Virus record (IMG/VR): IMGVR_UViG_3300031992_000018
Coordinates: 96,001 to 160,000 of that record
Reading direction: 5' to 3' (one strand)
Length of the DNA: 64,000 nt
From: a virus
Taxonomy: Duplodnaviria > Caudoviricetes
In this document: piece by piece, positions 9,159-48,980 of the stretch
How positions within the stretch are numbered: the stretch's first letter is position 1
How the letters are laid out: each line of letters opens with the position of its first letter
The notes under the pieces: generated by a model
What the model was told of the DNA's origin: nothing
The model's database searches: none
What the model saw: the letters and a program-made list of their open reading frames with translations, nothing else
Position numbers and translations under genes: made by a program

Positions 9159-10046
9159 TTAATCATGATACCATTTAGGAGGATTTTTTTGTAAAGGAGA
9201 TTCTTTAAACATACGTAGCATATTTGTAACATTACTTACATTCCACTTTGATATATCCCCATTAAATTTAGAATTTAAAAACATACAATACATATTAGTA
9301 ACTTTACTTACATCCCAAGATGATATATCTCCATTAAATTCAGTCTTACTAAACATACTTGCCATACTTGTAACATTACTTACATCCCATTTTGATATAT
9401 CACCATTAAATTTAGAATTATAAAACATACTATTCATACCTGTAACATTGCTTACATTCCAAGATGATATATCACTATTAAAATCAGAATCACAAAACAT
9501 TGCCGACATATCAGTAACATTACTTACATCCCAAGAAGATATATCTCCATTAAATGATGAATAATAAAACATCTGTGACATATCAGTAACATTACTTACA
9601 TCCCAAGAAGATATATTTCCATTAAATAATGAATGATAAAACATAGAAATCATATCTTTAACATTACTTACATCCCAAGATGATATATCACCATTAAATT
9701 CAGAACCAGAAAACATTCTTTGCATATTAGTAACATTACTTACATCCCAAGATGATATATTTCCATTAAATTTAGAATTATAGAACATACTATCCATATT
9801 AGTAACATTACTTACATCCCAAGATGATATATTTCCATTAAATTTAGAATTATAGAACATACTATCCATATTAGTAACATTACTTACATCAATATCATTT
9901 AAATCAGCCTTATTTCCTCTTTCTTCAATAAGTTTATCTACTAAAGATTTAAGTTCATCTCTATCTTTAGGTTGATAATTATGTATTGGTTTAATATTTT
10001 TATTAAGATGAAGTTTTTCAAATAAGTAATTATTTAATTCTTTCAT
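9159..10046 (-). CDS. BspA-like DUF285 repeat protein with capsid-targeting-like leader
   Basis: About ten 22-aa repeats FNGDISSWDVSNVTxMxxMF; N-terminus MKELNNYLFEKLHLNKNI. Confidence 0.85.
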   Translation of the reverse strand: MKELNNYLFEKLHLNKNIKPIHNYQPKDRDELKSLVDKLIEERGNKADLNDIDVSNVTNMDSMFYNSKFNGNISSWDVSNVTNMDSMFYNSKFNGNISSWDVSNVTNMQRMFSGSEFNGDISSWDVSNVKDMISMFYHSLFNGNISSWDVSNVTDMSQMFYYSSFNGDISSWDVSNVTDMSAMFCDSDFNSDISSWNVSNVTGMNSMFYNSKFNGDISKWDVSNVTSMASMFSKTEFNGDISSWDVSKVTNMYCMFLNSKFNGDISKWNVSNVTNMLRMFKESPLQKNPPKWYHD

Positions 10047-10078
10047 TATATGTATAATATATTATTATATATAAAAAT

Positions 10079-10108
10079 AAAAAAGAGGTTCATTTATTGA
10101 ACCTCTTT
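10079..10108. terminator. Terminator, copy 2 (near-identical to 9126-9155)
   Basis: aaaagaggttca-tttat-tgaacctcttt. Confidence 0.8.
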
Positions 10109-10127
10109 CTATTTATATTTTAGTAAA

Positions 10128-11405
10128 TTATTTTTCAAGCATTGCAAGTTCTTTAGCTGCTTTATTAAGAAGAGTAATCTTAACAGGATCATTCTTATAT
10201 TGTTCTGCTAAAAGAGCAATCTTCTTTCTTCTTGCTGCGAATGCTGCTTCTTTATCAGCTTCAAGTTGTTCCTTGATTTGCTGATATTTTTCGGGATCAG
10301 CTTTCTTACAATCTTCATTGATTCTATTTTCATAAACTTCTTTAAGATCAATACCTGTTACTTTAATAACATCCTTAAGAGCTTCTACCATAAAATCATA
10401 AGATTTAACTGAAGTACCAGCATTAAGTGAACGGTTAACTGAAAGAACTACATTATTACCTTCGATAATTGTGCAAATTTCACCTGTAGATGTCTGAAGA
10501 ACATTAACATTATCAAGAGCGCGTACATTATCATAAGCTTCAAATACTTCTGCAATAGCACTTGTAACATTCATCCAATTCATCTTTTCATTTAATGACA
10601 TTGGTTTAGAAACTGTATTACAATACTGAATAAAATCAGCTGCATTACTAAAGCTTTCTTTAAGATCACCTTTTGTAAATACAAGACCTTCATCAGTTAA
10701 AGTAAATCTTGCTGTATCTCCATGAGTACCTTTATATTCATAGAAAATAGAATTATCTTCTCTAGAGAAACTTTCAAGAAGAGCATTAATTCTCTTGAAT
10801 TTAATATCATCACAAACAGCTTCAGTAATATTATTTTCTTCATCTCTCTTATAAGTTTTACCAAGAACTGAGAAATAAGAATCTTTCTTATCTTCACTTT
10901 CTGTAACTACTACATAAGAAATAGGAGTTGTAACAACATATGTAGGAGCATGCATTTCATTAAGAGTTGAAGCATAAACATTCTTAAGAATCTGTCTAAA
11001 TTCAGGAATAAATGTAAGGTTCTTCATTGCACCAGCTTTAAGATATGATACAACTTCACTTTCATTCATTTCAAGAAGTTTATCTACTTGTTCAAGTCCC
11101 ATCTTTGAAAGATAACCATAACTTGAATTATTAGCATTGATTGATTCACAAGCTGTTGCAAGTTGCCAAGAAATATTATTTTCTTTAATAAAACTATTAA
11201 CAGATTCTAAAATTCCTACCAAACCTGCATCGAAACTAAATTTAGCTGCTTCTTTAATAAAGCCATTAACGATACCACAGGTAACTGGATTAGAATAAAT
11301 ATATCCTCTGTAGTTTTGTAACATTTCTTTACCTGCTTCGGTAACTGCTTCAGTTCCGTTTATCTTACTTGCGAAGTCCAGGTTTTTTAGTAATTTTATA
11401 TTCAT
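10128..11405 (-). CDS. Hypothetical protein, possibly virion or prohead associated
   Basis: 425-aa ORF; C-terminal coiled coil; located among putative late genes. Confidence 0.6.
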   Translation of the reverse strand: MNIKLLKNLDFASKINGTEAVTEAGKEMLQNYRGYIYSNPVTCGIVNGFIKEAAKFSFDAGLVGILESVNSFIKENNISWQLATACESINANNSSYGYLSKMGLEQVDKLLEMNESEVVSYLKAGAMKNLTFIPEFRQILKNVYASTLNEMHAPTYVVTTPISYVVVTESEDKKDSYFSVLGKTYKRDEENNITEAVCDDIKFKRINALLESFSREDNSIFYEYKGTHGDTARFTLTDEGLVFTKGDLKESFSNAADFIQYCNTVSKPMSLNEKMNWMNVTSAIAEVFEAYDNVRALDNVNVLQTSTGEICTIIEGNNVVLSVNRSLNAGTSVKSYDFMVEALKDVIKVTGIDLKEVYENRINEDCKKADPEKYQQIKEQLEADKEAAFAARRKKIALLAEQYKNDPVKITLLNKAAKELAMLEK

Positions 11406-11499
11406 AGTTTTAATATATTTGGTATATTTATAGAATTTGTAGATTAATTCTACTTTTTATATATAATAATAAAATAATTTTAAAATGTATGATTATTTA

Positions 11500-12487: not shown

Positions 12488-13258
12488 TTATAGTTTTTTA
12501 CCAAGATTATTTATTGGATGAGGAAATTCATTTTTCTTTGCAAGTTCTTCTAAATCTTTTTCATACTTCTCTTTTTCAAAAACAATTGTAAATAAGAAAG
12601 TATAAAGATCATCAAGATTATCAATAGCAACATCAAGTACTTGAGCCCAAGTAATTTCTTTTCTCTTTTCAAGTTTAGTTAAAGTATCTGCTGCATTAAG
12701 TAAAGAATTTTTTATAGAACATTCTTTACCATTAGTACCCATATGTTTAATAGCAAATAATTGAATATCACCATTAGCTCTTAATAAAAGTACAGGTTCT
12801 GATAATTTTTCATCTTTACATATAGATAATATATCATTTCTTAATTTAGGACTCATACACATATTTCCCATATTAGAACATGGTTCATAAAATACAAGTG
12901 GTTCTGAATTGCTTCTTTGATATTCATCATTGAATCTGCATTTATAACTAAATTCTCCATGTGCATTATATAAATCCATTACTTTAGGATAACCTGAAAA
13001 AATCTGTGTATATTTTGTAACAGGATCTAATGGAGTACATGAACTAGGTTCTAAAGTATTTGCACATGGAACGCAAGGATCAACAGTACATGATGCTTCA
13101 CCAGGAATATCACATCCATAAGAGCAACCATCATCACAACATCCACAACATTCAGTTATTTCATATCCTTCAAGATTAGAAAGTTTTTCTACAATATTCT
13201 TATCTAATCCCTTTAAACATATATATTGATTATTTATATATTCAGATAATTTTTTCAT
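12488..13258 (-). CDS. Cys-rich protein with capsid-targeting-like leader
   Basis: MKKLSEYIN; ITE-CCGCCDDGCSYGC. Confidence 0.6.
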   Translation of the reverse strand: MKKLSEYINNQYICLKGLDKNIVEKLSNLEGYEITECCGCCDDGCSYGCDIPGEASCTVDPCVPCANTLEPSSCTPLDPVTKYTQIFSGYPKVMDLYNAHGEFSYKCRFNDEYQRSNSEPLVFYEPCSNMGNMCMSPKLRNDILSICKDEKLSEPVLLLRANGDIQLFAIKHMGTNGKECSIKNSLLNAADTLTKLEKRKEITWAQVLDVAIDNLDDLYTFLFTIVFEKEKYEKDLEELAKKNEFPHPINNLGKKL

Positions 13259-15280: not shown

Positions 15281-15613
15281 TTATTTATTTATTTCATTAT
15301 ATCTTTCAATTATATCTAATAGTAATTGTTTATTAGATATTGGATAAAACATTCTATCAATATAGATTCCAATAATATCTTTTGGTGCTGCAATATCTAA
15401 TTCTTTATCAATCATATTTATTGTATACCATGAATAATCATTTCCTTCTTTTAAAAGAATTTTAGGTAATTGATCAGAATTACTTTTATTTGCATCATAT
15501 CTATTTGTTCTATCGATTACTTTTTTACATGCTTCATCTTTTTCTAAAATAGATTTTACAAATGCAAAAAAAGAATTTTTTCCTTCAGTTATATATTCAT
15601 TTAAATTCTTCAT
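15281..15613 (-). CDS. Putative head-internal protein
   Basis: MKNLNEYITE leader; TTATTTTTA motif upstream. Confidence 0.65.
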   Translation of the reverse strand: MKNLNEYITEGKNSFFAFVKSILEKDEACKKVIDRTNRYDANKSNSDQLPKILLKEGNDYSWYTINMIDKELDIAAPKDIIGIYIDRMFYPISNKQLLLDIIERYNEINK

Positions 15614-15704
15614 TATATTATATAATCTAATTAAATAAAAATAAAATCTTTTGAATTATATTATCAAAATTATCTATAATACATTATCTAAATTAATTAA
15701 TAAA

Positions 15705-17173: not shown

Positions 17174-17560
17174 TTAATCCAAGTGATCAAAAGCTACTGG
17201 TTCACCATTCCAATAATAACAATATGTATATTTATCTAATTTTACATCTCCAAATTTATTTATTCTTGCTCTCTTTTCTTCTGTTTCTTTTGTATCAAAT
17301 TCATCAGGAATTGGAACTGATTTACCAGCTTGACCATTACCAGATACAATTTTATCTTTTAATTTTCTAAAAGTAAATGTTTTACCACTAATTTTAACTA
17401 TTTTATAAAAATCAATTATAATCATACTATAACTAAAATTAGAATAAATAATATCACCTACTTCCCAATTTTCTGGTTTTGATTTATCTCTTTCTTCAAC
17501 AGTTTCAATATCTTTATTAAGATGTAATTTTTCTATTATATATTTATCTAATTGTTTCAT
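17174..17560 (-). CDS. Putative head-internal protein
   Basis: Likely start 17560, MKQLDKYIIEKLHLNKDI. Confidence 0.65.
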   Translation of the reverse strand: MKQLDKYIIEKLHLNKDIETVEERDKSKPENWEVGDIIYSNFSYSMIIIDFYKIVKISGKTFTFRKLKDKIVSGNGQAGKSVPIPDEFDTKETEEKRARINKFGDVKLDKYTYCYYWNGEPVAFDHLD

Positions 17561-17570: not shown

Positions 17571-19079
17571 TTAATATTTATGTCCTCCTCTTGCATATTG
17601 AAGTCTCATTTGTTCTTCAATCATTGATTCTGCATCTTCATCAGTAAAATCAGGATCATCATCACAAGCAGTAAATATCTTTGCACAAAGAACAAATGTT
17701 CTTAATGATAATTCCATACTTGATCCTTTTTCATTTAATTCTTTTAAATAATTATAAGCCTTTATTTTTGCTTTAGGCAATAATATTTTATTTTCAATAT
17801 TTGGAAGTAATTTCTTTATAATTGATAAAATCTCATCATTTGAAAAATCAATATCTTGCATAAAACATCTATTTCTTAAAGCTGTATCAAGTTGTCCTGC
17901 ACGATAATTTGTTATAACAATAACACCAGATTTAATTCTACATTTCTTTGGAATTTCTTGACCGTCATCATCAGTAATTTTACCAGCAATTCCATAAGTA
18001 ACAAGTCTTCCTTCTGGAGATGTATCTGAATCAAGAGCTGCTTTAAGAATATTGATACAGTTTTCATCTGCTTGTGGACCTACAAGAGAGTCAGCATCAT
18101 CAATTAAAATAATATCATTACTTTCTCTAAATCCATAAAGAGTAGCATAAAGTCTTCTTGCTGTACATTTGCCTTTTATAGTACAAAGATTTTCTCCTTC
18201 AATATAATTAGATTCTTTAAGTTGTTTCTTTACTCTATATGTTTTACCAACACCAGGAGCTCCACAAAGAATAAGTGCTGGTTGACGACCTTTAATAACT
18301 AAAGAAATATATTTTTCCATTTCTTTAAATATCTGGTCAGGATCTTTTCTATTACTTTGAGCATCTTTAATTTCCTTAGAATCTTCAATTTCAACTCTTT
18401 TACCTTTAGCAATTGATACTTTAATATCTTCTGAACCACCTTCTTTTATATATTTATAAATATCTTTAACATCATTTTCGATATTATTTAAATTAGAGTT
18501 TGAAATTTTACTCTTAGCAATAAATGATTCATGAATTAAATCTTTATCAATTTTAGAAAAAATATAATTTAATTTACCAATATTATATTTAGATTCTTTT
18601 AAATTATCTTCTTTATTAGATAATTTTTTAACATCTTCTTCACTAATAGAATATTTTTTAGAATTTACTATTGTCCATACTACTGGTAATAATTTAGCTA
18701 TATTTGTACCTAAAGTATAAATAGATAAATCTGCTTTTCCTTTACCAGACCAATATACATCTAAATCTTTAAAAAAGTCTATAGAATATACATCTACAGA
18801 ATCATTATCATTAATCCAATTAAATTGAAAAAATGAAGTTTTAGCATAATCTGATTTATCAATAACAATAAATTGTTTTGATGTACATTTTTCACCATCA
18901 ATTGTAGTATCTACAAAACCAATAAGAGGAACAAGACCATTGATATGCTTCTTTAAAATTGATTCAATTTTTTCAATAGCCGCATCAATATCTTTTTCTC
19001 TAAATGATTCATTTAATTTTTCTTTATTTTGTATATCTTGATTACGCTTATTTACGAATTCTAAAAAATTATATCTCAT
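17571..19079 (-). CDS. AAA+ ATPase domain protein
   Basis: GAPGVGKT Walker A, LIDDAD Walker B, VITN, ALRNR. Confidence 0.85.
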   Translation of the reverse strand: MRYNFLEFVNKRNQDIQNKEKLNESFREKDIDAAIEKIESILKKHINGLVPLIGFVDTTIDGEKCTSKQFIVIDKSDYAKTSFFQFNWINDNDSVDVYSIDFFKDLDVYWSGKGKADLSIYTLGTNIAKLLPVVWTIVNSKKYSISEEDVKKLSNKEDNLKESKYNIGKLNYIFSKIDKDLIHESFIAKSKISNSNLNNIENDVKDIYKYIKEGGSEDIKVSIAKGKRVEIEDSKEIKDAQSNRKDPDQIFKEMEKYISLVIKGRQPALILCGAPGVGKTYRVKKQLKESNYIEGENLCTIKGKCTARRLYATLYGFRESNDIILIDDADSLVGPQADENCINILKAALDSDTSPEGRLVTYGIAGKITDDDGQEIPKKCRIKSGVIVITNYRAGQLDTALRNRCFMQDIDFSNDEILSIIKKLLPNIENKILLPKAKIKAYNYLKELNEKGSSMELSLRTFVLCAKIFTACDDDPDFTDEDAESMIEEQMRLQYARGGHKY

Positions 19080-19115
19080 AAATTATAATATTAATTATAT
19101 ATAAAAATAAAATTA

Positions 19116-22996: not shown

Positions 22997-23093
22997 AAAT
23001 TTTACATACTTAATTTAATTAAAAATAAAAATCTACTATAAAAGTTTAAAGATTTGAATGTTATTTTTATATATAAATAGATAATACTAAGAA

Positions 23094-24392: not shown

Positions 24393-24734
24393 TTATTTAT
24401 TTTTAAATTCTATGTCATGTATATATATTGTTGTAAGATCATCTTCATCAAAGGTTATAAAAAAACTATCTATATAATCATTATCAAAAAATTTCTTTTT
24501 TATCTCTTTAATACAACTATGTAAAAAAGATGATGATTTTTCTTTTTTAAATTTTATATATAACCATTTATCATCATCTATAATAAATGTATAATCATCA
24601 TCTTTATATAAAAATTCTCCATCAAAATAAGATTCTAGATCAAATAATAGTTTATCCATATTATCTGATTTTACATTTATATTTTTATTAAGATGTAATT
24701 TTTCTGTTATATATTGACTTAAATTATTCATCAT
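24393..24734 (-). CDS. Putative head-internal protein
   Basis: MNNLSQYITEKLHLNKNI leader. Confidence 0.6.
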   Translation of the reverse strand: MMNNLSQYITEKLHLNKNINVKSDNMDKLLFDLESYFDGEFLYKDDDYTFIIDDDKWLYIKFKKEKSSSFLHSCIKEIKKKFFDNDYIDSFFITFDEDDLTTIYIHDIEFKNK

Positions 24735-24798
24735 TAAAATTTTTCTTTATACAATTAAAAATAATTTTATTTTTATTTAATTATATAACACAGTATTT

Positions 24799-25504: not shown

Positions 25505-25535
25505 AAAAAGAGCTCTTTTTAAAGAGCTCTTTTTT
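25505..25535. terminator. Bidirectional terminator
   Basis: aaaaagagctcttt...aaagagctcttttt between convergent genes. Confidence 0.75.
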
Positions 25536-27196
25536 TATTTTTCTTCTCTACTATGTTTATTGTATTCTGATGAATGAAATTCTTCTTCAAAAGTATGTTT
25601 AGCACCAGGATTAATCATATAAGCCATTTTTGCCATTATATCTCTATTAAGAAGAACTGGTGTTGATTTCTTTCTATTATCAACAAGAGCAAAATCTACA
25701 TTAAGTAATTTTCTTGAACCAATCTGAATACAAGGTACTATTACAGTAACTCTTTCTTCACGTACTTGTCCAACTATAGGGTTTGAAACCCCACTTTTCT
25801 TAAATCTATATGTTTTACCATTTATAACTGCTGATACTTTATCTCCAACTACTTCAACTGATTCACAACCAATTGTAGAAGCTTTAGCGCCATTACCTGT
25901 ATCAAATTTAGCTTCAAGTTCAAATTCTGAATCATTATCCATAATAAACTTCATATTTTCAATATAACCAATTGATTTAGGTGCAAGTACAAGCTCATTA
26001 ATATCATTGATTGCATCAAGAAGTATCTTACAGAAATTTTCTCCAATTACTTCAGAAATACCTTCTGTACCTGGAGAGCAGTTATATTCAAGAACAACAT
26101 TATCTCCAATCTCTGGATTAGAACCTTTTACAAGAGGCATAATATCAACAGCACACCAAGGCATACCTGAAATCTTTGCTACATTTAATGCAATATCTTC
26201 TTGTTCTTTAGTAATTTCAACTTTTTCAGCTTCTGCACCAAGAGATACATTACTTCTGAAATCACCACCAAGTTTCTTTCTCTTCATACATGCAAGAATT
26301 GTTTGTTTTGTTCTGCTTGTAAGAACATGCACTCTGATATCACCACCATCAGCTTCTTCTTTCTTTTGAAGAAGTAATTCTCTTTCAGGGTCAATAGCAA
26401 ATATTGCTTGAAGAATTGCAAGAATACCTTTACCTGTTGTCATGAATACACCTGTTCCACCATGACCATCAAGAATCTTTACAACATATTCTCTCTTTTC
26501 ATCTTCTTCTTTATTTTCACCTACTTCTTTATAAATAAGTTTAAGTTTCTTCTGAAGAGATTCTTCACCTTTAGATACATCTTTTGAAGAAAGAAGACAG
26601 AATTTTGGTTGTGGAATATCATATCTTTTCATAAGAACAGCTGAAGCATATTTATTACTTGCTCTTTTAGCTGCTTGAATTGGATTAAGAACAAAAAGAC
26701 CCCAATCTTGAAGTTCTTTAATACATTCCATACATTCTTCACTATCTTGTGCACCAAGACGTGCAATAACTATTGTATCTATATTTGATTGATCTGTTAT
26801 AGTAAATTTCTCTTTAGAATCTTTAATTTCAATTTTCTTATCATCTGCACTATAATCAACTTCTTCAGAAACAAATGTTATAAGATTTACATCTGTATTT
26901 TTAAGTGCATCTTGAAGGTTTTTAAGAGTTTTATTTTTTGAAGCATCTCTTTCATTTGTAAAGAAGATAATATTCTTAAAGAAATATTCTTCATTTCTTT
27001 TTATTTTTTCAGCATTCTGTACAGTATCATTTTTTGCACCTAATTGTTCAGCTGCTTGATCAACTGCTTGGTCTTCTGAACCAGGTTTTTCTGGATTTTT
27101 TTCTGCACCAGTATTTTCTTCTGCTTCTAAAATAGATTCTACTTCATCTATTGATTTAATAAATTTTGATTCTAAAAGTTCAGTTAAAGTTTTCAT
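25535..27196 (-). CDS. RimK-family ATP-grasp ligase fused to a RimB-like (retropepsin-like) peptidase
   Basis: VVK..DGHGG.GV, DIRV, FRSNVSLG, AVDIM, VLEYNCSPG; C-terminal AKFDTGNG, LLNRD; leader MKTLTELLE. Confidence 0.85.
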   Translation of the reverse strand: MKTLTELLESKFIKSIDEVESILEAEENTGAEKNPEKPGSEDQAVDQAAEQLGAKNDTVQNAEKIKRNEEYFFKNIIFFTNERDASKNKTLKNLQDALKNTDVNLITFVSEEVDYSADDKKIEIKDSKEKFTITDQSNIDTIVIARLGAQDSEECMECIKELQDWGLFVLNPIQAAKRASNKYASAVLMKRYDIPQPKFCLLSSKDVSKGEESLQKKLKLIYKEVGENKEEDEKREYVVKILDGHGGTGVFMTTGKGILAILQAIFAIDPERELLLQKKEEADGGDIRVHVLTSRTKQTILACMKRKKLGGDFRSNVSLGAEAEKVEITKEQEDIALNVAKISGMPWCAVDIMPLVKGSNPEIGDNVVLEYNCSPGTEGISEVIGENFCKILLDAINDINELVLAPKSIGYIENMKFIMDNDSEFELEAKFDTGNGAKASTIGCESVEVVGDKVSAVINGKTYRFKKSGVSNPIVGQVREERVTVIVPCIQIGSRKLLNVDFALVDNRKKSTPVLLNRDIMAKMAYMINPGAKHTFEEEFHSSEYNKHSREEK

Positions 27197-27285
27197 ATAT
27201 ATTTTATAAAAAATTTATCTATATAAAAATAAAAGATAAAAGAATAAATATCTATATTATATAAGAAATATATTTAAGATAATGA

Positions 27286-32971: not shown

Positions 32972-32975
32972 TTTA

Positions 32976-33008
32976 AAAAAGCCTCTAAATTATTAGAGGC
33001 TATTTTTC
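32976..33008 (+). terminator. Intrinsic terminator
   Basis: agcctctaa-a-ttattagaggct inverted repeat plus T-run. Confidence 0.65.
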
Positions 33009-33040
33009 TATATTAATATATATTAAATTATAGAATAGTT

Positions 33041-33673: not shown

Positions 33674-34446
33674 TATTTCCAGATATAGAATATTTACATT
33701 TAACTAATAATTGGAAAAGAATATTTGAAGATTTTAGTTATAAATGTGAAATATATAAAGATTATTATGAATGTTTAAACTATTCATATAAAATATCTCC
33801 AATGATTGATTATTGCATGAGTTATTTTACTAATCTATTTGATTTAGATAAAGCAAAAGCAATATATAATTGGTATAGAAATCATGATTCAAGAGATCAT
33901 TCTATTGAAGAATATTTTGATGAATATAAAAGATGTACAGATGAAACTCATTTAGATTTTAATTCTAATTATGGGTTATATGCTTATTCTCCAGAAGGTC
34001 TTGATAAATGTATAAAACGTCTTGGAGAAAATAATGATACTCGTCAAGCAATGTTTTGTATAAATAACAATGAAGCAATGTCTGATAGAAGTATAGATAA
34101 ACTTTGTACTAATACTGTTCAATTTTATATAAGAAGAAATAAATTAATTATGGTAGTACAAATGAGAGCAAGTAATATGATTACTCTTTTACCATATGAT
34201 TCATTTATGTTTTGTTATTGGTATTTTTATGTATTTAATAAATTATATAATGAATATGATTTAAAAAATCTTGAACTTAATTATATTTATATTAATGTAT
34301 CAAGTATTCATTACTATATAGATAATTTAGAAAAGATTAATAAGGATAATAAAGACGTTAAATTTATCAATGATTTATTTGATGATTATAAAGATCCTGA
34401 TTTTATAAATATATTTGATAAAAAGATAAATGGACAATACAGTTGA
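33658..34446 (+). CDS. Divergent thymidylate-synthase-fold / dCMP hydroxymethylase paralogue
   Basis: NSNYG, DTRQA, KLCTNTVQFYIR, QMRASN, LPYD, SSIHYY. Confidence 0.8.
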   Translation: MDEYMIFPDIEYLHLTNNWKRIFEDFSYKCEIYKDYYECLNYSYKISPMIDYCMSYFTNLFDLDKAKAIYNWYRNHDSRDHSIEEYFDEYKRCTDETHLDFNSNYGLYAYSPEGLDKCIKRLGENNDTRQAMFCINNNEAMSDRSIDKLCTNTVQFYIRRNKLIMVVQMRASNMITLLPYDSFMFCYWYFYVFNKLYNEYDLKNLELNYIYINVSSIHYYIDNLEKINKDNKDVKFINDLFDDYKDPDFINIFDKKINGQYS

Positions 34447-35137
34447 TATTTTAAATCAATTTAAAGAAAAGTATAAAAATGGTGAATTCAGATATATTAA
34501 TGGAACTACAAAAACAGTAGAAATTCAAAATGCACATTTTATATGTGATAAAGATTATATTTTAAGAGAACCAAATTATGAATATGCTAGAAGAGAGATT
34601 GCATGGTATGATACAATGTCTTTATATGTAAAAGATATTCCTGATAAGATACCAGTAATTTGGCAGAATGTTTCTGATATAAATGGTAAGATTAATTCAA
34701 ATTATGGTTGGTGTATTTATTCAGAAGAAAATGGTTCACAATATAAAAATTGTTTATATAATTTAATTCATGATACTTGTTCAAGACAAGCAGTAATGAT
34801 ATATACTAGACCATCAATGCATAATGATGCTAATAAAAACCATATGCATGATTTTATGTGTACATTTGCAACACAGTGTTTTTTAAACAAAGTTGAAGAT
34901 GGTTATTCTTTAAAGTATATAGTTTATCAAAGAAGTAGTGATGCTGTATTTGGTTTTAATAATGATCATCTTTGGCATAAAGAAGTACAAAAAAGATTAG
35001 CTGATGATTTAGAGAAAGAATTTAATAAAATAAAAAATGAAAGTGATGAACATATCCATGTACATTGTGAACCAATAGAATTTAATTGTGGATCAATTCA
35101 TGTTTATGAAAGACATTTTCAATATTTGGAGGATTAA
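34430..35137 (+). CDS. dCMP hydroxymethylase (T4 gp42-like)
   Basis: YARREIAWY, INSNYGW, DFMCT, QRSSDAVFGFNND (Asp at the dCMP-specificity position), GSIHVYERHF. Confidence 0.88.
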   Translation: MDNTVDILNQFKEKYKNGEFRYINGTTKTVEIQNAHFICDKDYILREPNYEYARREIAWYDTMSLYVKDIPDKIPVIWQNVSDINGKINSNYGWCIYSEENGSQYKNCLYNLIHDTCSRQAVMIYTRPSMHNDANKNHMHDFMCTFATQCFLNKVEDGYSLKYIVYQRSSDAVFGFNNDHLWHKEVQKRLADDLEKEFNKIKNESDEHIHVHCEPIEFNCGSIHVYERHFQYLED

Positions 35138-35140
35138 TTT

Positions 35141-35659
35141 ATGAGAAATTTTGATTATCAATATCTTAGAATTGCTAAAATTTGGAGTGAGAATTCTTAT
35201 TCAAGAAGAAATAAAGTAGGTGCTATTATAGTAAAAGATGGTATGATTATTTCTGATGGTTATAATGGTACACCAGCAGGATTTGATAATAATTGTGAAA
35301 ATGAAGTAAAATGTGATGTTGATTGGGATGAACTTATTTCTGCATTAGATAATGGATCTTCTGTATGTGCTGCATATAATAGAGATTGTAATAAATGTCC
35401 TCATCATTATCTTGTTACAAAACCAGAAGTACTTCATGCAGAAGCTAATGCTATTACAAAAGTAGCAAAATCTACTAATTCTTCAGATGGAAGTACATTA
35501 TATGTAACATTATCTCCTTGTATTGAATGTGCAAAACTTATTATTCAAGCAGGTATTAAAAGAGTTGTATATAATGATGTTTATAGAAATACTGACGGTC
35601 TTGAATTACTTAAGAAAGCAGGTATTGAATTAGTACAAATAAAAGATATAAATGATTAA
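35141..35659 (+). CDS. dCMP deaminase
   Basis: KVGAIIVKD, GYNGTP, HAEANAI, SPCIECAK. Confidence 0.93.
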   Translation: MRNFDYQYLRIAKIWSENSYSRRNKVGAIIVKDGMIISDGYNGTPAGFDNNCENEVKCDVDWDELISALDNGSSVCAAYNRDCNKCPHHYLVTKPEVLHAEANAITKVAKSTNSSDGSTLYVTLSPCIECAKLIIQAGIKRVVYNDVYRNTDGLELLKKAGIELVQIKDIND

Positions 35660-37579: not shown

Positions 37580-38335
37580 ATGAATATACTTATAACAGGA
37601 AACAGAGGATTTATTGGTGGACATTTATCTAAATATTTAAAGGATAAAGGTCATAATATTATAGGTATAGATAGAAAAGATGGTAATGAAGTATTAGATA
37701 TTAATGAAGATACTTTAAAAGATATTGATATTATAATCCATTTAGCAGCACAAACATCAGTTTGGAATACTAATATTGAATTAATAGAAAATGATAATAT
37801 AAAATCTTTTATTCATATATTTAATTTATGTAAAAAACTTAATAAAAGATTTATATATGCAAGCAGTTCATGTTCGATAAATATAACATCGATGTATGGA
37901 TTAAGTAAATATTTTGATGATTTATATTTTGAAATTTATAAATGGGATAAATGTATTGGATTAAGATTTCATAATGTATATGGTAAAGATTCAAGAGAAG
38001 ATACATTATTAGGAATTTGTTTAAATAATTCAGAAATTACATTATATAATAATGGACTTAATTATAGACATTTTACTTATATAGATGATGTATGTAAAAG
38101 TATAGAAATGTCTTTTAATTTAAAATCTTGTATATATAATGTATTTAATCCTCAAGAAAATTCAGTATTAGAATTTGTCAATGAAGTTTTAAAATATAAA
38201 GATTTAAAAATTAATTTAATTGATTCTATAAGAGAACTTGATAAAGAAAAACAGCTTATAGATGATACTAAAATAAATTTAATAGAAAATAATTATAAAA
38301 ATATAAAAATAGGCATAAATGAGATATTTAGGTAA
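37580..38335 (+). CDS. NAD-dependent epimerase/dehydratase
   Basis: ITGNRGFIG, HLAA, YASS, YGLSK, LRFHNVYG, RHFTYIDDV. Confidence 0.9.
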   Translation: MNILITGNRGFIGGHLSKYLKDKGHNIIGIDRKDGNEVLDINEDTLKDIDIIIHLAAQTSVWNTNIELIENDNIKSFIHIFNLCKKLNKRFIYASSSCSINITSMYGLSKYFDDLYFEIYKWDKCIGLRFHNVYGKDSREDTLLGICLNNSEITLYNNGLNYRHFTYIDDVCKSIEMSFNLKSCIYNVFNPQENSVLEFVNEVLKYKDLKINLIDSIRELDKEKQLIDDTKINLIENNYKNIKIGINEIFR

Positions 38336-39242
38336 ATTTACTTCAGAAACTGAAATACAAAATGCATTAGATAATAATGAATTATTAAATCCTTATATTG
38401 CATTATATAATAATGCATTAAATATAGATATTAATACAAAAACACCACATGATTATTCTCAAGATTATTTAACATTTGTTATTTTATCTGGTTTAGGAGA
38501 GATTTCTCCACAATATGATGGAATTGAATTTTCTAAGGATAATGGAGAATCATGGCAAGATTGGACTATAAGTGGTGAACAAGGAGATAGAATTTTAGTA
38601 AGAGGAAATTTTAAAAATGGAAGTGCAACTAATGGATTTTTTAATATAGTAGATTCACATTTTTATGCAATTCCAGAAGATTTTACATATAATGTAGAAG
38701 GTAATATATTATCAATATATGATTCAGAAAATTTTAGAACATTAACTGAAATTGAAAATACTACTTTTGAAGGATTTTTTTTTAATTTAGATGGTTTAAT
38801 TTCAGCAAAAAATCTTATATTACCATTAACAACTTTAACACAAGATTGTTATAAATTAATGTTTAAAGGTTGTGTAAATCTTACTACTGCGCCTGAACTT
38901 CCTGCTACTGTATTATCAAATGATTGTTATTTAGAAATGTTTGATGGTTGTGTAAATTTAAATTATATTAAATGTCTTGCTTTAAATATATCTACTAGTA
39001 TTTATTTTGGTTTACAAGAATATAGTTCAGGTTCAGGTTCAGGTTCAGGTTCAGGTTCAGGTTCAGGTTCTGGTTCAGGTTCAGGTTCTGGTTCAGGTTC
39101 TGGATCAAGTTCTGAAACAGGTTCAATATCTAAAACATTTATTATAAATAATAATTTTGATGGTAATCCATATGACTTGTTTAATATACCATATTCATGG
39201 AATGTATATTATGAAAATGGTACACAATATATTAATGAATAA
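38319..39242 (+). CDS. Putative fibre or surface protein with LRR-like repeats and (SG)n tract
   Basis: CY..MF.GC..L.TAPELPAT repeats; (SG)13 tract. Confidence 0.65.
   Translation: MRYLGKFTSETEIQNALDNNELLNPYIALYNNALNIDINTKTPHDYSQDYLTFVILSGLGEISPQYDGIEFSKDNGESWQDWTISGEQGDRILVRGNFKNGSATNGFFNIVDSHFYAIPEDFTYNVEGNILSIYDSENFRTLTEIENTTFEGFFFNLDGLISAKNLILPLTTLTQDCYKLMFKGCVNLTTAPELPATVLSNDCYLEMFDGCVNLNYIKCLALNISTSIYFGLQEYSSGSGSGSGSGSGSGSGSGSGSGSGSGSSSETGSISKTFIINNNFDGNPYDLFNIPYSWNVYYENGTQYINE
39027..39106 (+). repeat. (TCAGGT/TCTGGT)n hexamer repeat encoding Ser-Gly
   Basis: Directly visible tandem hexamers. Confidence 0.95.
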
Positions 39243-39265
39243 AGAAATATAATAATAATATATAT

Positions 39266-41554
39266 ATGGGAAAACATTTAGCTAAATTTAATACTAAGAC
39301 AGAAATACAAAATGCTTTAAATAGTTTTACATTATTAAAACCTTATGTTGCGATATATAATAACAAAACTAATATTGATTATAATTCATTTAATATAAAG
39401 TATCGTAATTTTGATTTTGATTCTGTTATAAAAATAAATACAGAAAATGATACATCATATGCTATAACATTAACAAAACAAATAGTAAATAATATAGAAA
39501 CAACAAATACATGGATTAATATAACATTAACTGATGTATTAGATAATAGTACTGATAATTGGACTCATTATCCAACTATTATAACTATACCAGATTCTGG
39601 TTCTGGTTCTGGATCTGGATCTGGTTCTGATTCTGACTCTGGTTCTGATTCTGACTCTGGTTCTGGATCTGGTTCTGGTTCTGGTTCTGGCTCTGGTTCT
39701 AGTTCTAATTTTGAAAAGATATTAGAAGTTAATTCAATGCTTATAAAAAATAATGAATTATATTTAAGATTAACTAATAATTTATATTATAAAGATAGTG
39801 CTAAATTATGTGCTAATGCATTTAAAATTAATTTAGATACTCAATTAGTAACACCAGTTATAATTAATGATTATAATGATAACTATTATATTGATAGTAT
39901 TATATATTGTGAAACTGAGAATAATAATATAATAGCAAAATCATTAACATCTAATATAATTAATATATTAACTTCTAATACAAATGTAAGTGAAAAATAT
40001 ATACCAATAGAATCAACAATTATTGTTATTAATGATGAAGTAGCATATTATATAACAGATATTAAATTAAAGACTAATAATCTTTATTTACGATTAAATA
40101 ATATTATATATGATAATAATTGTAATATAGATTTTAACGCATTTTCATTATATTTAACACATGGTTTAATAGAAAAAATTATATCTACAAATGAAATAAG
40201 TAATATTAATTCAGTAATTATAAAATATGATTGTATTTATGAAAGACCTGAAAATGTATTTAATGTAATTATAGATGCTAATGATGAATCAAATGAAGAA
40301 GCAAATGAATTAAATGGATATTATTGTGTAGATATTTTAAATCCAGAATATGGTGATGATGGTTGTATATATACATCTAAATATCAACTAAATAATTATA
40401 TTAATGATAATATAACATATGTGGATAATGATAATATATCTATTAAACTTGCACAATATACATATAAATTATTAACTAGTGATGAGAATAATTATTATGT
40501 ACCATTTGTTCAATCAAATGAAAATGTACTTACATATACTAATGATAATAATTATGTTTTAACTGAAGTAACAGGAGAATTACAAACAATAATTTATGGT
40601 ATAAAAAATAATACATTATCACAAACAGAATTTAATGTTAATATATCAATATCTGATGACAATAATAATACATATAATATTGAAAAAATAGAATATGTTA
40701 GTGGAGATTGTGGTAAACTTATATTATATAAATATGTTAAGCCTGATATAGACTATGATTATTATAATCAGACTAATGGTTGGATAGATGGATATACATT
40801 AACTATTAACACTAACTCTGTATGGTCTTATTATGACGACAAAATAATTGGTTTATGTAAAATAGAAGAAGATAATAATGTACCAGACATTTTAGATAGT
40901 AAATATATAATGCAGCCATTAGCAAATAATACTGAATATCAAGGAATATATGTATTAAATACTACATTAGATGGATCTACAAATAATCCTTATGTTGTAG
41001 GAATAATTCCACAAATTAAAAATGTAAATACATCAAATAATATATCAATTGAAAATTTATCTATTTATAATGATGTTGTATATTATATAAAAGATGGAGT
41101 TGATGATTATGATTTATTTGGATCTAGATGTTATTATATGAAGAATAATAATATAACATATATTATATCTGAAAAATTATTATCAGAAAATTATTCTAAT
41201 GTTTATTTTACTATAAATTCATCAGGTGTAATATCAAATGAAGGAAATTTATTATGTACAATATCATCTAATGGAGATAATGCTTATGTAAAGTTCAGTG
41301 AATTATATGAAGCAGTACATAATCCAAAAACTTTAGTTGATATAGATAGTTCTGATGGTTTATATCAAGCTATATATAATGGAGGTCATTTATATATAAT
41401 TAGAAATCATACTACTACATCTGGTGTCGTACCAACTGGTGGTTATGTAGAAATAAGTACTGACTTTACATCATTACATGATATAACAAATTTAGATGTT
41501 AACTTTGAAACTATTGAAGAAGAAAATGAATTTATTACAAATTTAACATCATAA
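39266..41554 (+). CDS. Putative fibre or surface protein with SG/SD repeat tract
   Basis: N-terminus shared with 38319 (KF...TEIQNAL....LL.PY.A.YNN..NID.N); [10 protein letters not shown] tract. Confidence 0.6.
39596..39706 (+). repeat. Hexamer repeat encoding Ser-Gly/Ser-Asp
   Basis: Directly visible tandem hexamers. Confidence 0.95.
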
Positions 41555-46979: not shown

Positions 46980-47307
46980 TAATGAAGAAAATATTTTAGA
47001 TGTTGATAAATTATATAATATAGCATCTAGATTAAAAGAAGCACAAAGTAATAGAATAAGTGCAAAAAATATACTTGCAAAGAATCCAAGTTCTACAATT
47101 AATAAAAGATATATTGATGCTAAAGAAGAATATGGAAAAGCTTTAAATGATTTTAATAACTTTGTTAATAATTATATTGAAATTAATCCTGATGGTATTA
47201 ATCAAATAATATTTAATAAAGATGTAAATGATGAAACTGTTATTAGAATAATTAAAAAGGTTAAAGAAGAATTAGAAAAAATAGTTAAAAAAGAATTAGA
47301 AAAATAA
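46960..47307 (+). CDS. Hypothetical protein
   Basis: ORF ending at the convergent terminator 47306-47336. Confidence 0.55.
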   Translation: MNQKNNNNEENILDVDKLYNIASRLKEAQSNRISAKNILAKNPSSTINKRYIDAKEEYGKALNDFNNFVNNYIEINPDGINQIIFNKDVNDETVIRIIKKVKEELEKIVKKELEK

Positions 47308-47317
47308 AAGGAGAGAA

Positions 47318-47734
47318 TTAATTCTCTCCTTTTTTGTCATTTTCTTGTCCCATTGGTGGAGTATCTACTTCTGTATTAGGAATGCCATTTAATGCATGTT
47401 GATAATCATAAGATACTTTATTAAATAAGTTAAAGTTTGTAATAAAATGTTCAATTATCTTAGTAAATAAATAAATATAATCTACACTAATTGCTTCATC
47501 TCTTTTTACATCTTCATCAAAGAAATCTACAAACTTTTTAATTTTAAACTTAGGATTTTCTGCTAAAAATTTTTCAACATCATCTTTTTGAACAAGTTTT
47601 CTTTGTCCACATATAGTTATAAAATTTAACATTGGTTTTAAATATTCTTTATCATTTTTAAACCATACATCAAATTTATAAGCGAAATTATCTACATCAA
47701 GACATTCTTTTATATATTCTTTAATATTCTTCAT
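47318..47734 (-). CDS. Putative head-internal protein
   Basis: MKNIKEYIKE leader. Confidence 0.65.
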   Translation of the reverse strand: MKNIKEYIKECLDVDNFAYKFDVWFKNDKEYLKPMLNFITICGQRKLVQKDDVEKFLAENPKFKIKKFVDFFDEDVKRDEAISVDYIYLFTKIIEHFITNFNLFNKVSYDYQHALNGIPNTEVDTPPMGQENDKKGEN

Positions 47735-47736
47735 AA

Positions 47737-48348
47737 TTAAATACTATAATATCCTTTTAAATTTTCTACAGATTTTATTGTAATTTCATTACTCTTTAAT
47801 TGAGATATTAAACGTTTATCTTTTATTAAGATATCACTGTTTATTTCTTTTAATGCAGATACAATATCACCATAATTAATAACATATTTATAAACAGTTA
47901 AATCTTCAAATAAAAATACTACAGGAACATCTTTTGCATTTTCATCAGTATATGTAATACCAATCAATGTACAAGATTCTGTTAATTCATCAGTTTTAAA
48001 TACTGATGTCAACCATGTATATTTATCATTTATTTCTCCATGTTCAGGATGAGTTTTTAGATCTTCTTTTACTTTATAAAAACCAACCTTTTGATTATCA
48101 TCATTTTGAGAATTAGATATAATCTTTTTTAAGATTTTTGTATTTTCAACAGGTTTAATAATTACATTATCAGAAGTAAACTTATTTATATACTTAACTT
48201 TTTCTTTTTCATTATAATCAGAAGAAGTTGCATCATATTCCTTCTTATTTGATTTACCTGTTAACCATTCCCAAAAACCTTTAAACCAATCACTTATAAC
48301 TCCTTCTTCAACTAATTGTTCTTGAATGTATTCATTTAAATGTTTCAT
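47737..48348 (-). CDS. Putative head-internal protein
   Basis: MKHLNEYIQE leader; VEE-GVISDWFKGFW. Confidence 0.65.
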   Translation of the reverse strand: MKHLNEYIQEQLVEEGVISDWFKGFWEWLTGKSNKKEYDATSSDYNEKEKVKYINKFTSDNVIIKPVENTKILKKIISNSQNDDNQKVGFYKVKEDLKTHPEHGEINDKYTWLTSVFKTDELTESCTLIGITYTDENAKDVPVVFLFEDLTVYKYVINYGDIVSALKEINSDILIKDKRLISQLKSNEITIKSVENLKGYYSI

Positions 48349-48980
48349 ATATTATATATTAATATTTCTTTATTTTCTTGTGATGTTTTAAATTTAAGTT
48401 TATTTAAATTTCCTTTTAATTTTGGATGTAAATTTTTTGCAGTAAAACCTTTTATATTACTATTTTCTTTTTTACATATATCAATATATTGTTTTAATAT
48501 TGTTTCATTTACTTCTGTTGGATTATCTACAATAAGATTAGATTCAATATCTACAATATGTCTATAATTTTCTATATATGTAGAAGTATTATCAACCATT
48601 AATAAAGCAATAGAATAAGTTCTTTTTCCATCCTCATCTTGAGAAAAAAATGTATAAACTAATGGATCTATTGGATTATTATTTATATCAACTAATAACT
48701 TTTTTTGGTTATTTATAATATTTGTAGCAACAACATATCCTAATTTATTATGTTTCCATTCATTTAAAGTATCATTATCAATTTCACTGAATTTTACTGG
48801 TTCTTTTGCAAATTTTATAGTTTTAGTATTAACTTCATACATTTCAACATTATTACCATTTAATCTTGATTGTTGACTTTTAAATACCTTTTTAAAAAAT
48901 GCTTTAAACCAATCTAATAAACCCTCATTTAAATATTTATTTTCAGCAAAATTATAATAATATTCTTTAATTTGTTTCAT
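48345..48980 (-). CDS. Putative head-internal protein
   Basis: MKQIKEYY leader; LNE-GLLDWFKAFFKKVF; TTATTTTTA upstream. Confidence 0.65.
   Translation of the reverse strand: MKQIKEYYYNFAENKYLNEGLLDWFKAFFKKVFKSQQSRLNGNNVEMYEVNTKTIKFAKEPVKFSEIDNDTLNEWKHNKLGYVVATNIINNQKKLLVDINNNPIDPLVYTFFSQDEDGKRTYSIALLMVDNTSTYIENYRHIVDIESNLIVDNPTEVNETILKQYIDICKKENSNIKGFTAKNLHPKLKGNLNKLKFKTSQENKEILIYNI

Follow-up and report, generated by a model that had tools for sequence, protein, structure and literature searches.

[quoted passage not shown] The leader of T4 IPII and IPIII is MKTYQEFIAE, IPI begins with MKTFKEF and has a longer propeptide, gp24 has the 10-residue propeptide MAKINELLRE, and all of these are removed by the prohead protease gp21. 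In phiKZ-like giant phages (SPN3US, 201phi2-1), tens of differing head-internal proteins, among them ejection/inner-body proteins, are targeted by N-terminal propeptides that a gp21-related prohead protease cuts after Glu at the motif (S/A/G)-x-E; these propeptides are mostly 80-160 residues long and have no single shared decapeptide (PMC5694885). As outlined in PMC2839356 and PMC4122927, mobile promoter/terminator cassettes termed PeSLs shuffle genes in the hyperplastic regions of T4-type genomes. Here we compare with these systems a group of N-termini encoded in a 64,000-nt stretch (the window) of a 168-kb contig from an uncultured giant T4-related phage (CheckV completeness 59%).

The 19 window ORFs originally predicted to carry a T4-like leader were all located (Table 1), and each opens with the consensus M-K-x-(L/I/F)-x-(E/Q/D/N/T)-(Y/F/L)-(I/L)-x-E once two starts are corrected; the leader lies at Met13 of the 17174 ORF and at Met2 of the 24393 ORF, so the likely starts are 17560 and 24731, respectively. 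Glu is found exactly at position 10 in only 9 of the 19 leaders, at position 9 or 11 in four (three of them with I or L three residues earlier), and at none of these positions in six; the ten leaders lacking Glu exactly at 10 count against a capsid-targeting reading. Contig-wide, Glu occupies position 10 in 26 of 38 leaders, and all 26 have I or L at P3, which is the (L/I)-x-E pattern of T4. On the basis of a crude call of the whole contig (n = 217 ORFs), the regular expression for the leader matched the start of 35 ORFs and a position weight matrix (PWM) scored 38 above 5 bits, or about one gene in six. The pattern followed an internal Met in 0 of 801 cases and was present at 0.15% of internal positions generally. 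For Tenacibaculum phage PTm1, a related jumbo phage (30% GC) with the same portal type, 0 of 311 ORFs matched the regular expression and none exceeded 8 bits by PWM. Relatives showed 30 leader-type N-termini among about 320 ORFs.

Table 1. Leader ORFs, leaderless array genes, and promoter-like motifs in the window.
Feature	Coordinates	Strand	Remarks
Leader ORF, 295 aa, DUF285 repeat cargo	9159..10046	-	MKELNNYLFE+KLHLNKNI; PWM 17.9 bits; Pfam DUF285 3e-121; two same-leader paralogues elsewhere on contig
Promoter-like motif TTATTTTTAT	10071..10080	-	34 nt before DUF285 gene; overlaps repeated terminator-like hairpin (family D9)
Conserved 425-aa protein, no leader	10128..11405	-	Fixed anchor ending variable array; Pfam/PHROG no match
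Leader ORF, 73 aa	11500..11721	-	MKNLVELLLNE; PWM 15.3 bits; Pfam/PHROG no match
Leader ORF, 95 aa	11746..12033	-	MKKLEDFINTE; PWM 10.4 bits; Gly-rich hydrophobic C-terminal half
Leader ORF, 142 aa	12039..12467	-	MKSLKDYILE; PWM 17.5 bits; no family match (Pfam, PHROG)
Leader ORF, 256 aa, Cys-rich region	12488..13258	-	MKKLSEYINN, no Glu at 10; PWM 18.6 bits; no family match (Pfam, PHROG)
Leader ORF, 115 aa	13313..13660	-	MKSLNEYLNN; PWM 18.6 bits; spacer + leader DNA recurs at next cassette (repeat families D2, D3)
Leader ORF, 70 aa	13678..13890	-	MKNLNEYLNH; PWM 20.0 bits; shares its junction repeat with 13313 ORF (82-88% identity)
Leader ORF, 159 aa	13937..14416	-	MKNLNEYLNE; PWM 22.1 bits
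Leader ORF, 144 aa	14839..15273	-	MKTLNEYLISE+KLHLNKNI; PWM 17.6 bits; leader-plus-extension DNA repeat D4
Leader ORF, 110 aa, first gene of array's unit	15281..15613	-	MKNLNEYITE; PWM 22.7 bits; promoter-like motif 31 nt upstream
Promoter-like motif	15635..15644	-	Heads array from 15613 down to about 10128
Leader ORF, 137 aa	16739..17152	-	MKNLVEFLLE; PWM 19.4 bits
Leader ORF, 128 aa from Met13 of listed ORF	17174..17560	-	MKQLDKYIIE+KLHLNKDI; PWM 15.9 bits at internal Met; phrog_37844 (unknown function), 3e-10
502-aa AAA ATPase, no leader	17571..19079	-	Conserved beside array; Pfam AAA 3.2e-9
Promoter-like motif	19101..19110	-	Precedes AAA ATPase gene and leader ORFs 17174, 16739
Promoter-like motif	23019..23028	-	Precedes 607-aa, gp25-like, gp6-like baseplate genes (structural comparison)
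Promoter-like motif	23061..23070	+	Precedes leader ORF 23094
Leader ORF, 280 aa	23094..23936	+	MKTFSNYIDN, no Glu at 10; PWM 12.3 bits; promoter-like motif 33 nt upstream
Leader ORF, 112 aa from Met2	24393..24731	-	MNNLSQYITE+KLHLNKNI; PWM 19.1 bits; promoter-like motif 30 nt upstream
Promoter-like motif	24755..24764	-	Precedes leader ORF 24393
Promoter-like motif	24767..24776	+	Precedes leader ORF 24799
Leader ORF, 228 aa	24799..25485	+	MKTINEYIRF; PWM 15.4 bits; promoter-like motif 32 nt upstream; helical, hydrophobic C-terminal part; PHROG tape-measure families down to 5e-10
Leader ORF, 553 aa, RimK-like ATP-grasp ligase + beta-rich C-terminal domain	25535..27196	-	MKTLTELLES; PWM 11.0 bits; Pfam RimK 1.9e-20
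Promoter-like motif	27223..27232	-	Precedes RimK-like leader ORF
Leader ORF, 138 aa	47318..47734	-	MKNIKEYIKE; PWM 18.1 bits
Leader ORF, 203 aa	47737..48348	-	MKHLNEYIQE; PWM 23.0 bits
Leader ORF, 211 aa, weak leader	48345..48980	-	MKQIKEYYYN; PWM 10.7 bits; promoter-like motif 34 nt upstream
Promoter-like motif	49005..49014	-	Heads unit of three leader ORFs, from 48980 to 47318

The resemblance to T4 was quantified with a PWM trained only on the leaders of this contig and scored on all 264 T4 N-termini. The proteins gp24 (cleaved by gp21 in T4), IPII, IPIII, and IPI took places 2-5 (hypergeometric P about 5e-6; annotations checked), so the T4-like character first proposed from the letters now has quantitative and cross-validated backing. 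Place 1 went to gp61.1, whose annotation does not name a head protein, and this counts against a capsid-targeting reading. Like the T4 sequences, the leaders comprise about 10 residues at the extreme N-terminus, end in (L/I)-x-E, precede unrelated cargo at polymorphic loci, and occur together with a gp20-type portal (PMC3012670, PMC5694885); the matching positions are K2, hydrophobic 4, E/Q 6, aromatic 7, I/L 8, and E 10. Whereas 5 of 264 T4 N-termini were PWM-positive (above about 2.5 bits), the contig yielded 38 of 217 above 5 bits. Also unlike T4, the predicted cargo has large enzymes among its members and an acidic average charge; a further conserved block, (E)KLHLNK(N/D)I, is present in about one quarter of the leaders; another type of leader, MKSLVESLFD, occurs in the complete relative G002; and protease and capsid genes were not found in contigs of the phage's own lineage. 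In comparison to the phiKZ-like propeptides, the putative tag here is 10 residues long, shared, and has I/L at P3.

For the RimK-like 553-aa ORF, the AF2 model contains a helix at residues 4-12, disorder over residues 18-68, and a folded body from residue 72, for which the top Foldseek matches were RimK 7qys and 5zk6. An alignment of its orthologs (53 representatives out of 120) likewise shows a conserved leader, a hypervariable acidic linker (the disordered linker is about 55 residues), and a conserved body from near residue 72, and solved structures of RimK homologues begin at the fold, without such a leader. Alignment and model support the leader acting as a detachable N-terminal tag.

The sequence TTATTTTTAW occurs 22 times in the window versus 11.4 expected, a count reached by 0 of 100 shuffles. 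Nine copies lie 24-46 nt (about 30) upstream of the first gene in every unit that holds the 19 ORFs, which bears out the claim that these ORFs fall in transcription units carrying the motif TTATTTTTA. At the same 24-46 nt spacing, TTATTTTTAW precedes the portal, baseplate, and tail genes and 12 leader-gene unit heads; one of the baseplate genes has a gp6-like product, with matches to the baseplate wedge of PTm1 and to gene 6 of T4. The strand of the structural genes carries 22 of the 38 leader genes versus 30 of the 179 others (P = 6e-7). On the other strand, 14-16 leader genes are located among small genes, some without the exact promoter motif, and this counts against a capsid-targeting reading.

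The portal of the phage is of the T4 gp20 type. Both G002 and PTm1 encode a gp21-type protease fused to scaffold, with repeated (I/V)-x-E-E motifs in the scaffold part of the G002 fusion, plus a gp23-type capsid protein. Searches with Pfam models, a single protein, and a six-sequence profile found neither gene on the contig (59% complete) nor on that of G001, its closest large relative (83% complete); both genes were detected only in the more distant G002 and in PTm1, and the sole protease trace on the searched contigs was a 115-aa ORF that aligns with the central part of the protease over 45 columns, the catalytic His not being aligned. The missing protease and capsid genes count against a capsid-targeting reading. 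They also favor an alternative that we regard as unlikely, in which the leader helix docks on something other than the prohead core (candidate partners are the AAA ATPase next to the array, a chaperone, a membrane assembly site, and a host target) and the tagged proteins act, unpackaged, in the infected cell. A tag-linker-body layout suits any address tag, the AAA ATPase is conserved next to arrays (homologues 46% identical at the same position in L157 and L159), the top T4 match is not a known head protein, and some tagged proteins are of types with no obvious need for packaging; those in relatives include weak sigma-70 region 2 and RNA-ligase matches, which are not obvious cargo and count against packaging. 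The alternative is opposed by the PWM singling out gp21-processed T4 head proteins, by the I/L-x-E protease pattern in every Glu-10 leader, and by the promoter-like motif and strand that leader genes have in common with structural genes.

In four relatives, the position flanked by the baseplate/AAA genes and by the 425-aa anchor (homologues in G002 at 33% identity, in G001, in PTm1 as ORF-242, and, at about 55% identity, in L155-L159) is filled by leader genes that differ and are not homologous, and the portal flanks in relatives likewise hold differing ones; this turnover parallels that at T-even internal-protein loci (PMC3012670). Of the array members, only the 11746 ORF is conserved in relatives (51-64% identity), where it is usually directly upstream of the 425-aa protein. 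The 47737 ORF has only seven homologue clusters among 5.8 billion proteins; of six seen, five retain the leader, which is degenerate in the sixth (35% identity). Junction DNA (spacer plus leader) is repeated between neighboring cassettes at 82-88% identity, with footprints of the 3' end of the upstream gene. As with PeSLs in the accounts cited above, variable genes sit between conserved late genes, with repeated promoter-like, hairpin, and junction sequences at their boundaries; unlike PeSLs as described there, the repeated junction runs into the coding region and encodes a conserved peptide.

These repeats, the shuffling cassettes known from T4-type phages (as outlined in PMC2839356 and PMC4122927), and the use of TTA for Leu at leader position 4 (83% vs 54% in the genome) would also suit a conserved start that is a nucleic-acid feature, either a translation-initiation region or a recombination hook, with a functionless peptide. 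We consider this improbable, as leader positions 3, 5, and 9 are free but positions 2, 4, 7, 8, and 10 hold their residue class through several codons, pooled codon use is not significantly off that of the genome (P = 0.056), and PTm1 has no leaders despite its 30% GC. Because codons at the conserved leader residues vary about as in the whole genome and relatives of 35-41% GC keep the peptide through other codons (AAG, CTT/CTA, TAC, ATC/TTG), selection appears to act on the leader at the protein level. Recombination at the leader is compatible with capsid targeting, and the two do not compete.

The cargo bodies (first 20 residues removed; BLASTP, E<=1e-3) formed 36 clusters from 38 proteins, in agreement with their earlier description as unrelated; the exceptions are a DUF285 trio, with one member in the window, and the neighboring 47737 and 48345 ORFs, distant paralogues with 24% identity. 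That the proteins are one old paralogous family, with bodies diverged past recognition and the N-terminus as the last conserved remnant of a common fold, is scarcely credible despite these exceptions, given this clustering, contig-wide body lengths of 70 to 1331 aa, unrelated folds (DUF285 repeats, RimK-type ATP-grasp, a Zeta-toxin-like P-loop domain, and a methyltransferase-containing giant), and the leaderless RimK structures. The recognizable cargo among the 19 window ORFs consists of the DUF285/BspA-type repeat protein, the RimK-like ligase, and the tape-measure-like helical protein; 0 of the 19 matched Pfam/PHROG families annotated as internal virion or anti-restriction. The anti-defense role suggested in the original prediction, especially against modification-dependent nucleases, is purely conjectural. 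With a median charge per residue of -0.041 vs -0.023 for other proteins (P = 0.053), the cargo is slightly on the acidic side of them, whereas T4 IPII and IPIII are basic, and this counts against a capsid-targeting reading.

We conclude that the N-terminus common to these proteins most likely serves as a capsid-targeting sequence of the T4 type, with core docking, protease removal, and spread by cassettes. The leader would form a short amphipathic helix, with K2, E6, and E10 on one face and L4, Y7, and I/L8 on the other, through which newly made late proteins would attach to the scaffolding core during prohead assembly. Cleavage by a prohead protease of the gp21 family, after the Glu of the (I/L)-x-E site, would next remove the leader, and the clipped cargo would stay inside the head and exit with the DNA; we infer docking, cleavage, packaging, and ejection alike. 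On this reading, about 10-17% of the genes in this lineage have come to carry the tag; they form cassettes among late structural genes and are exchanged by recombination at the spacer-plus-leader junction. Since a leader closely like the T4 head-loading tag is found on many unrelated genes, this phage probably loads its head with an unusually large complement of proteins.

All 19 window ORFs that the original prediction had grouped by a common N-terminus are present with starts as described; the starts of two were corrected (ORF 17174 to Met13 and ORF 24393 to Met2). The leader, a stretch of about ten residues of the form M-K-x-(L/I/F)-x-(E/Q/D/N/T)-(Y/F/L)-(I/L)-x-E, reaches well past the window. 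Among the 217 ORFs of a crude call over the whole contig (G000), 35 matched the pattern as a regular expression and 38 scored above 5 bits with a position weight matrix for residues 2-10 that was built from the leaders of this contig. At internal positions the pattern occurred at a rate of 0.15%, and it followed none of 801 internal Met residues. The information content sits at K2, L/I4, E/Q/T6, Y/F7, I/L8, and E10, positions 3, 5, and 9 are free, and about 10 of the 38 leaders continue into a second block, KLHLNK(N/D)I. When drawn as a helix, the leader would carry its hydrophobic residues on one side and K2, E6, and E10 on the opposite one. The individual features referred to in this analysis are collected in the table.

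Features of the G000 contig, its relatives, and T4 (window coordinates unless another record is named; L-numbers are loci of relatives or contigs)
Position	Strand	Feature	Observation
9118-9161 and 10072-10115		Terminator-like hairpin (AAAGAGGTTCAT..TTGAACCTCTTT)	Nearly identical copies on both sides of the DUF285 cassette; the upstream copy overlaps the promoter-like motif
10128..11405	-	Anchor, conserved leaderless protein, 425 aa	End of the variable leader-gene array
17571-19079	-	AAA ATPase, 502 aa	Pfam AAA 3e-9; under the TTATTTTTAW motif; kept beside leader arrays of relatives
25535-27196		RimK-like protein	Leader-bearing
27286-35659	+	Nucleotide-modification cluster	HD hydrolase, full-length CarB-like carbamoyl-phosphate synthase, carbamoyltransferase-like, kinase-like, dCMP deaminase; two thymidylate-synthase-family genes, one 45% identical to T4 gene 42 (dCMP hydroxymethylase)
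38319-41554	+	Two adjacent proteins, 307 and 762 aa	Alike in an N-terminal block (F.T.TEIQNAL....LL.PY.A.YNN), both with long Ser-Gly/Ser-Asp repeats; probable fibres or receptor-binding proteins
52007-52351	-	ORF, 114 aa	TTATTTTTAT motif 24 nt upstream (52375-52384); the ORF call had taken an overlapping plus-strand ORF instead; probably another late gene
54466-57186	+	Four adjacent ORFs, 231, 204, about 136, and 157 aa	Different common start, MK(I/V/T)Q(I)R...FETNSS..H, which looks like a second family-like shared start
Contig 24904-25251 (L089:1366-1713)		ORF, 115 aa	After the DNA polymerase gene; 45 columns match mid-protease (hhalign 87%), including an LLxTPxGKIxQ stretch, catalytic His not aligned; may be a protease-fold remnant or paralogue
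Contig 24904-28004		Candidate hidden protease-scaffold-capsid module	Rejected: only the 45-column protease-like stretch, no catalytic His, no Pfam support
Contig 161717-162622 (L007:3718-4623)		Leader protein, 301 aa	MKKLLDFIFE start; Zeta-toxin-like P-loop kinase domain (Pfam 3e-7)
G002 76100-77482 (L094:16100-17482)		Leader protein, 460 aa	Match to Sigma-70 region 2 close to the threshold (E 5e-5); possibly a sigma-like factor with a tag
G002, e.g. L093:16204-17186, L101:12402-13519		Second leader type, MK(S/T)L(V/A)ESLFD	On >12 other unrelated proteins, beside the MKHLxxYIxE type
G002 L096:17993-19756, L102:13028-13687; G001 L113:11041-11232		ATPLNTLGMGNP in the gp23-type capsid protein of G002 (N-terminal region)	Near-identical motif TPxNTxGMGNP immediately behind the leader in two proteins, one of G002 (219 aa) and one of G001 (63 aa); no copy of this type of motif on the G000 contig
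T4 NC_000866 18966-19130		Gene 61.1, 54-aa hypothetical protein	Outscores IPI-III and gp24; may be an unrecognised CTS-bearing protein, or the motif may not be exclusive to head proteins

The G000 contig (168,026 bp, 25% GC, CheckV completeness 59%), of which bases 96001-160000 form the window, encodes a large terminase, a T4 gp20-type portal, baseplate hub and wedge proteins, a family B DNA polymerase, and head-completion proteins resembling T4 gp2 and gp4. The portal matches phrog_213 at 3e-71, with 2196 T4-type phage records matched, and its nearest named matches, at 30-39% identity, are Sphingomonas phage PAU, Tenacibaculum PTm1/PTm5, Chryseobacterium MA9V, and the Prevotella Lak phages. 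A megablast search of the region against cultured phages gave no match; closer uncultured relatives are numerous in IMG/VR, and the contigs bearing orthologs of one window protein are 270-450 kb long. On the basis of these contig sizes and the portal matches, the phage is a member of an uncultured giant-phage clade that is distantly T4-like.

Leaders were also found in two relatives, with 30 among 323 ORFs in G002 (complete, 239.8 kb, 37% GC) and 30 among 317 ORFs in G001 (236 kb, 26% GC). For the Tenacibaculum phage PTm1, which has the same portal type and 30% GC, none of 311 ORFs matched the regular expression and none scored above 8 bits. When leaders above 8 bits were counted around the portal in 80 related loci, their share dropped with falling portal identity to the G000 phage: 17 of 163 ORFs at identities of at least 78%, 15 of 191 at 64-67%, 19 of 126 at 54-57%, 7 of 109 at 48-50%, and 7 of 647 at about 40%. 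Because the four groups from at least 78% to 48-50% cover 24-41% GC, the leader expansion is a trait of one clade. Neighbouring cassettes have spacer-plus-leader DNA in common (82-88% identity), and the 3' end of the upstream DUF4494 gene is copied there as well. The cassette junctions have thus truly undergone recombination or duplication, but this does not explain the conservation of the leader in divergent, GC-richer relatives. The codons used at the conserved residues vary (AAA/AAG; TTA/CTT/CTA/ATT/ATA; TAT/TAC/TTT; ATA/ATT/TTA; GAA/GAG) to about the extent of genome codon usage (major codons 154 versus 142 expected, P=0.056), and the synonymous variety is greater still in the leaders of G002. 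Chance due to AT-richness is ruled out by the low internal rate of the pattern, by its lack in PTm1, and by retention of the motif in relatives of 35-41% GC.

The proteins behind the leader had been described as unrelated, and they are: after removal of the first 20 residues, the 38 cargo bodies formed 36 BLASTP clusters, and the leader slots hold different genes among relatives. In four loci with anchors about 55% identical to that of G000 (L155, L157, L158, and L159), the slot running from the gp6-like baseplate gene or the AAA ATPase to the anchor is filled by other leader genes, which showed no BLAST similarity to those of G000 except for the 95-aa ORF 11746, the only array member kept. 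Similarly, the portal is followed by a leader gene in G000, by three different leader genes in G002, and by a non-leader gene in G001. Recognisable cargo in the window comprises a DUF285/BspA-type repeat protein, the RimK-like ligase, and a tape-measure-like helical protein, and elsewhere on the contig the leader is borne by the Zeta-toxin-like P-loop protein and by a 1331-aa protein with a methyltransferase match; the remaining leader-bearing proteins are orphans. For the 203-aa ORF 47737, seven homologue clusters were found among 5.8 billion proteins, all within the clade of G000. The cargo on G000 is somewhat acidic.

The RimK-like protein, with >2500 homologues, allowed the boundary between leader and body to be located. 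Among its best 120 homologues (65-95% identity), most start with MK(T/K)(L/F)x(Q/E)(L/F)(L/I)E and about one-fifth have other N-termini. Two of the orthologs, P0043 and P0045, are encoded on contigs of 283 and 274 kb. The conserved body of the orthologs begins at YFFKNI, near residue 72, and is preceded by an acidic linker that is very variable in length and sequence. An AlphaFold2 model from 34 sequences has a helix at residues 4-12, pLDDT below 50 at 18-68, and a confident fold from residue 72, for which RimK structures were the best solved matches (TM up to 0.76 on the target). This helix-linker-body layout indicates that the leader is an add-on joined through a flexible linker and separate from the RimK-like enzyme.

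The likeness to the T4 capsid-targeting sequence (CTS) was examined by scoring the N-termini of 264 T4 ORFs with the matrix trained on G000 leaders alone. The translations of T4 IPII and IPIII begin with MKTYQEFIAE followed by Ala. Ranks 1-5 were taken by gp61.1 (MKTFKEFIKE, 14.3 bits), gp24 (MAKINELLRE, 7.3 bits), IPII and IPIII (6.3 bits each), and IPI (2.7 bits), which the T4 record annotates as 61.1, the capsid vertex protein 'cleaved by gp21' (gp24), and internal virion proteins. The presence of 4 of the about ten known gp21 substrates within the top five of 264 corresponds to a hypergeometric P of 5e-6. Propeptides of 10-20 residues (CTS) occur on the internal proteins and gp24 of T4 and are removed by gp21 (PMC5694885). 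Glu is found at position 10 in 26 of the 38 leaders, each of which carries I or L at P3, as in the T4 pattern. Of the 19 window leaders, 9 fit the (L/I)-x-E site exactly, 3 have the Glu shifted by one residue, and 7 do not fit, six having no Glu there and 11746 having Glu-11 but N at P3. The claim of a T4-like leader is thus upheld both by the fit of the extreme N-terminus, about ten residues long, to the CTS pattern and by the placement of gp24, IPII, IPIII, and IPI at 2-5 of 264. The head propeptides of phiKZ and SPN3US are about 80-160 aa long with (S/A/G)-x-E sites (PMC5694885), whereas the G000 leader has 10 residues and I/L at P3, which rules out a propeptide of that type. A RiPP (graspetide) precursor system was rejected because the leader-bearing proteins are unrelated and of 70-553 aa rather than short precursors, and the ATP-grasp protein was rejected as a graspetide ligase because it bears the leader itself and is closest to RimK. 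An amphipathic, net acidic peptide of 10 residues, without any hydrophobic stretch that might serve as an h-region, is not a Sec, Tat, or lipoprotein signal peptide.

Neither a gp21-family protease (Peptidase_S77) nor a gp23-type capsid protein was found on G000 or G001 (83% complete) when these contigs and six other fragments were searched with Pfam PF03420 and PF07068; the lack of a protease holds for G000, G001, and five other fragments. Neither the G002 protease sequence by itself nor its six-sequence profile detected a protease in contigs of the G000 lineage, and scans of IMG/VR with protease and capsid alignments and of 5.8 billion proteins with the protease domain returned only G002-like sequences or nothing. 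The 369-aa ORF beside the portal, considered as a capsid protein, is TelA-like instead. The complete G002 encodes both a gp23-type capsid protein and a gp21-type protease (E 5e-9; L088:436-1914, protease domain in the first ~170 residues). The protease is fused at its C-terminal side to a scaffold-like part in which (I/V)-x-E-E recurs; an adjoining Lys/Glu-rich ORF of 436 aa starts with MDLKEYLID. In PTm1 the annotated portal, protease-scaffold, and capsid genes follow the T4 order; its GenBank annotation, examined for virion evidence, has no proteomic labels. By bracketing, the G000 lineage should have protease and capsid genes in the missing ~40% of the genome.

The window ORFs had also been assigned to transcription units with a shared motif, and all 19 lie in units headed by a TTATTTTTAW site. 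Of 42 copies of this motif on the contig, 27 have a same-strand start codon 14-62 nt downstream (mode 31-35). Behind these copies come the portal gene, two baseplate genes (gp25-like and 607-aa), several large genes of the tail region, and the gene for a 2096-aa protein, as well as twelve heads of leader-gene units; some leader genes on G000 are without the motif. Leader genes are enriched on the strand of the structural genes (odds ratio 6.8, P=6e-7). TTATTTTTAW may be a late promoter. The hairpins flanking the DUF285 cassette resemble the promoter/stem-loop cassettes of T4-type phages.

When the 19 window ORFs were compared with Pfam and PHROG (E<=0.01), no family annotated as internal virion or anti-restriction was matched, and no sequence similarity to IPI or other known anti-restriction proteins was found in the cargo. 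This leaves the analogy with T4 IPI and the hydroxymethylase/carbamoyl cluster as what points to a possible anti-defence role.

From these sequence comparisons, we consider it reasonably probable that the leader is a tag for capsid targeting and cleavage of the T4 type, greatly expanded in one clade. In T4, a ten-residue tag suffices to load any protein into the phage head, and what happens in the first minutes of infection is decided by cargo of this kind (IPI, Alt). A more speculative extension, which we put forward tentatively, is that in this clade the head-loading tag of T4 has become a general address label, directing dozens of proteins to the capsid so that the virion delivers a large, rapidly exchanged 'first-minute' proteome with the DNA. 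The packaged enzymes would then include the RimK-like glutamate ligase, the Zeta-toxin-like kinase, and a giant protein resembling restriction-modification enzymes. Loading might be aided by the AAA ATPase that is conserved next to the arrays; one review speculates that jumbo-phage AAA (BCS1-like) proteins may carry folded proteins into heads (PMC7824862). The CTS concept is already known from T4; new are its scale, the phage lineage, and the enzymes among the cargo. In the literature collection searched, no paper connected capsid-targeting sequences with uncultured huge phages. If true, with 1/10 to 1/6 of the genes tagged in a clade of giant gut phages that is widespread, virion-delivered proteins would have a far larger place in the strategies of phages than is apparent from the few models studied, candidate injected effectors of uncultured phages could be listed from sequence only, and the leaders would provide tag variants of natural origin for protein packaging.
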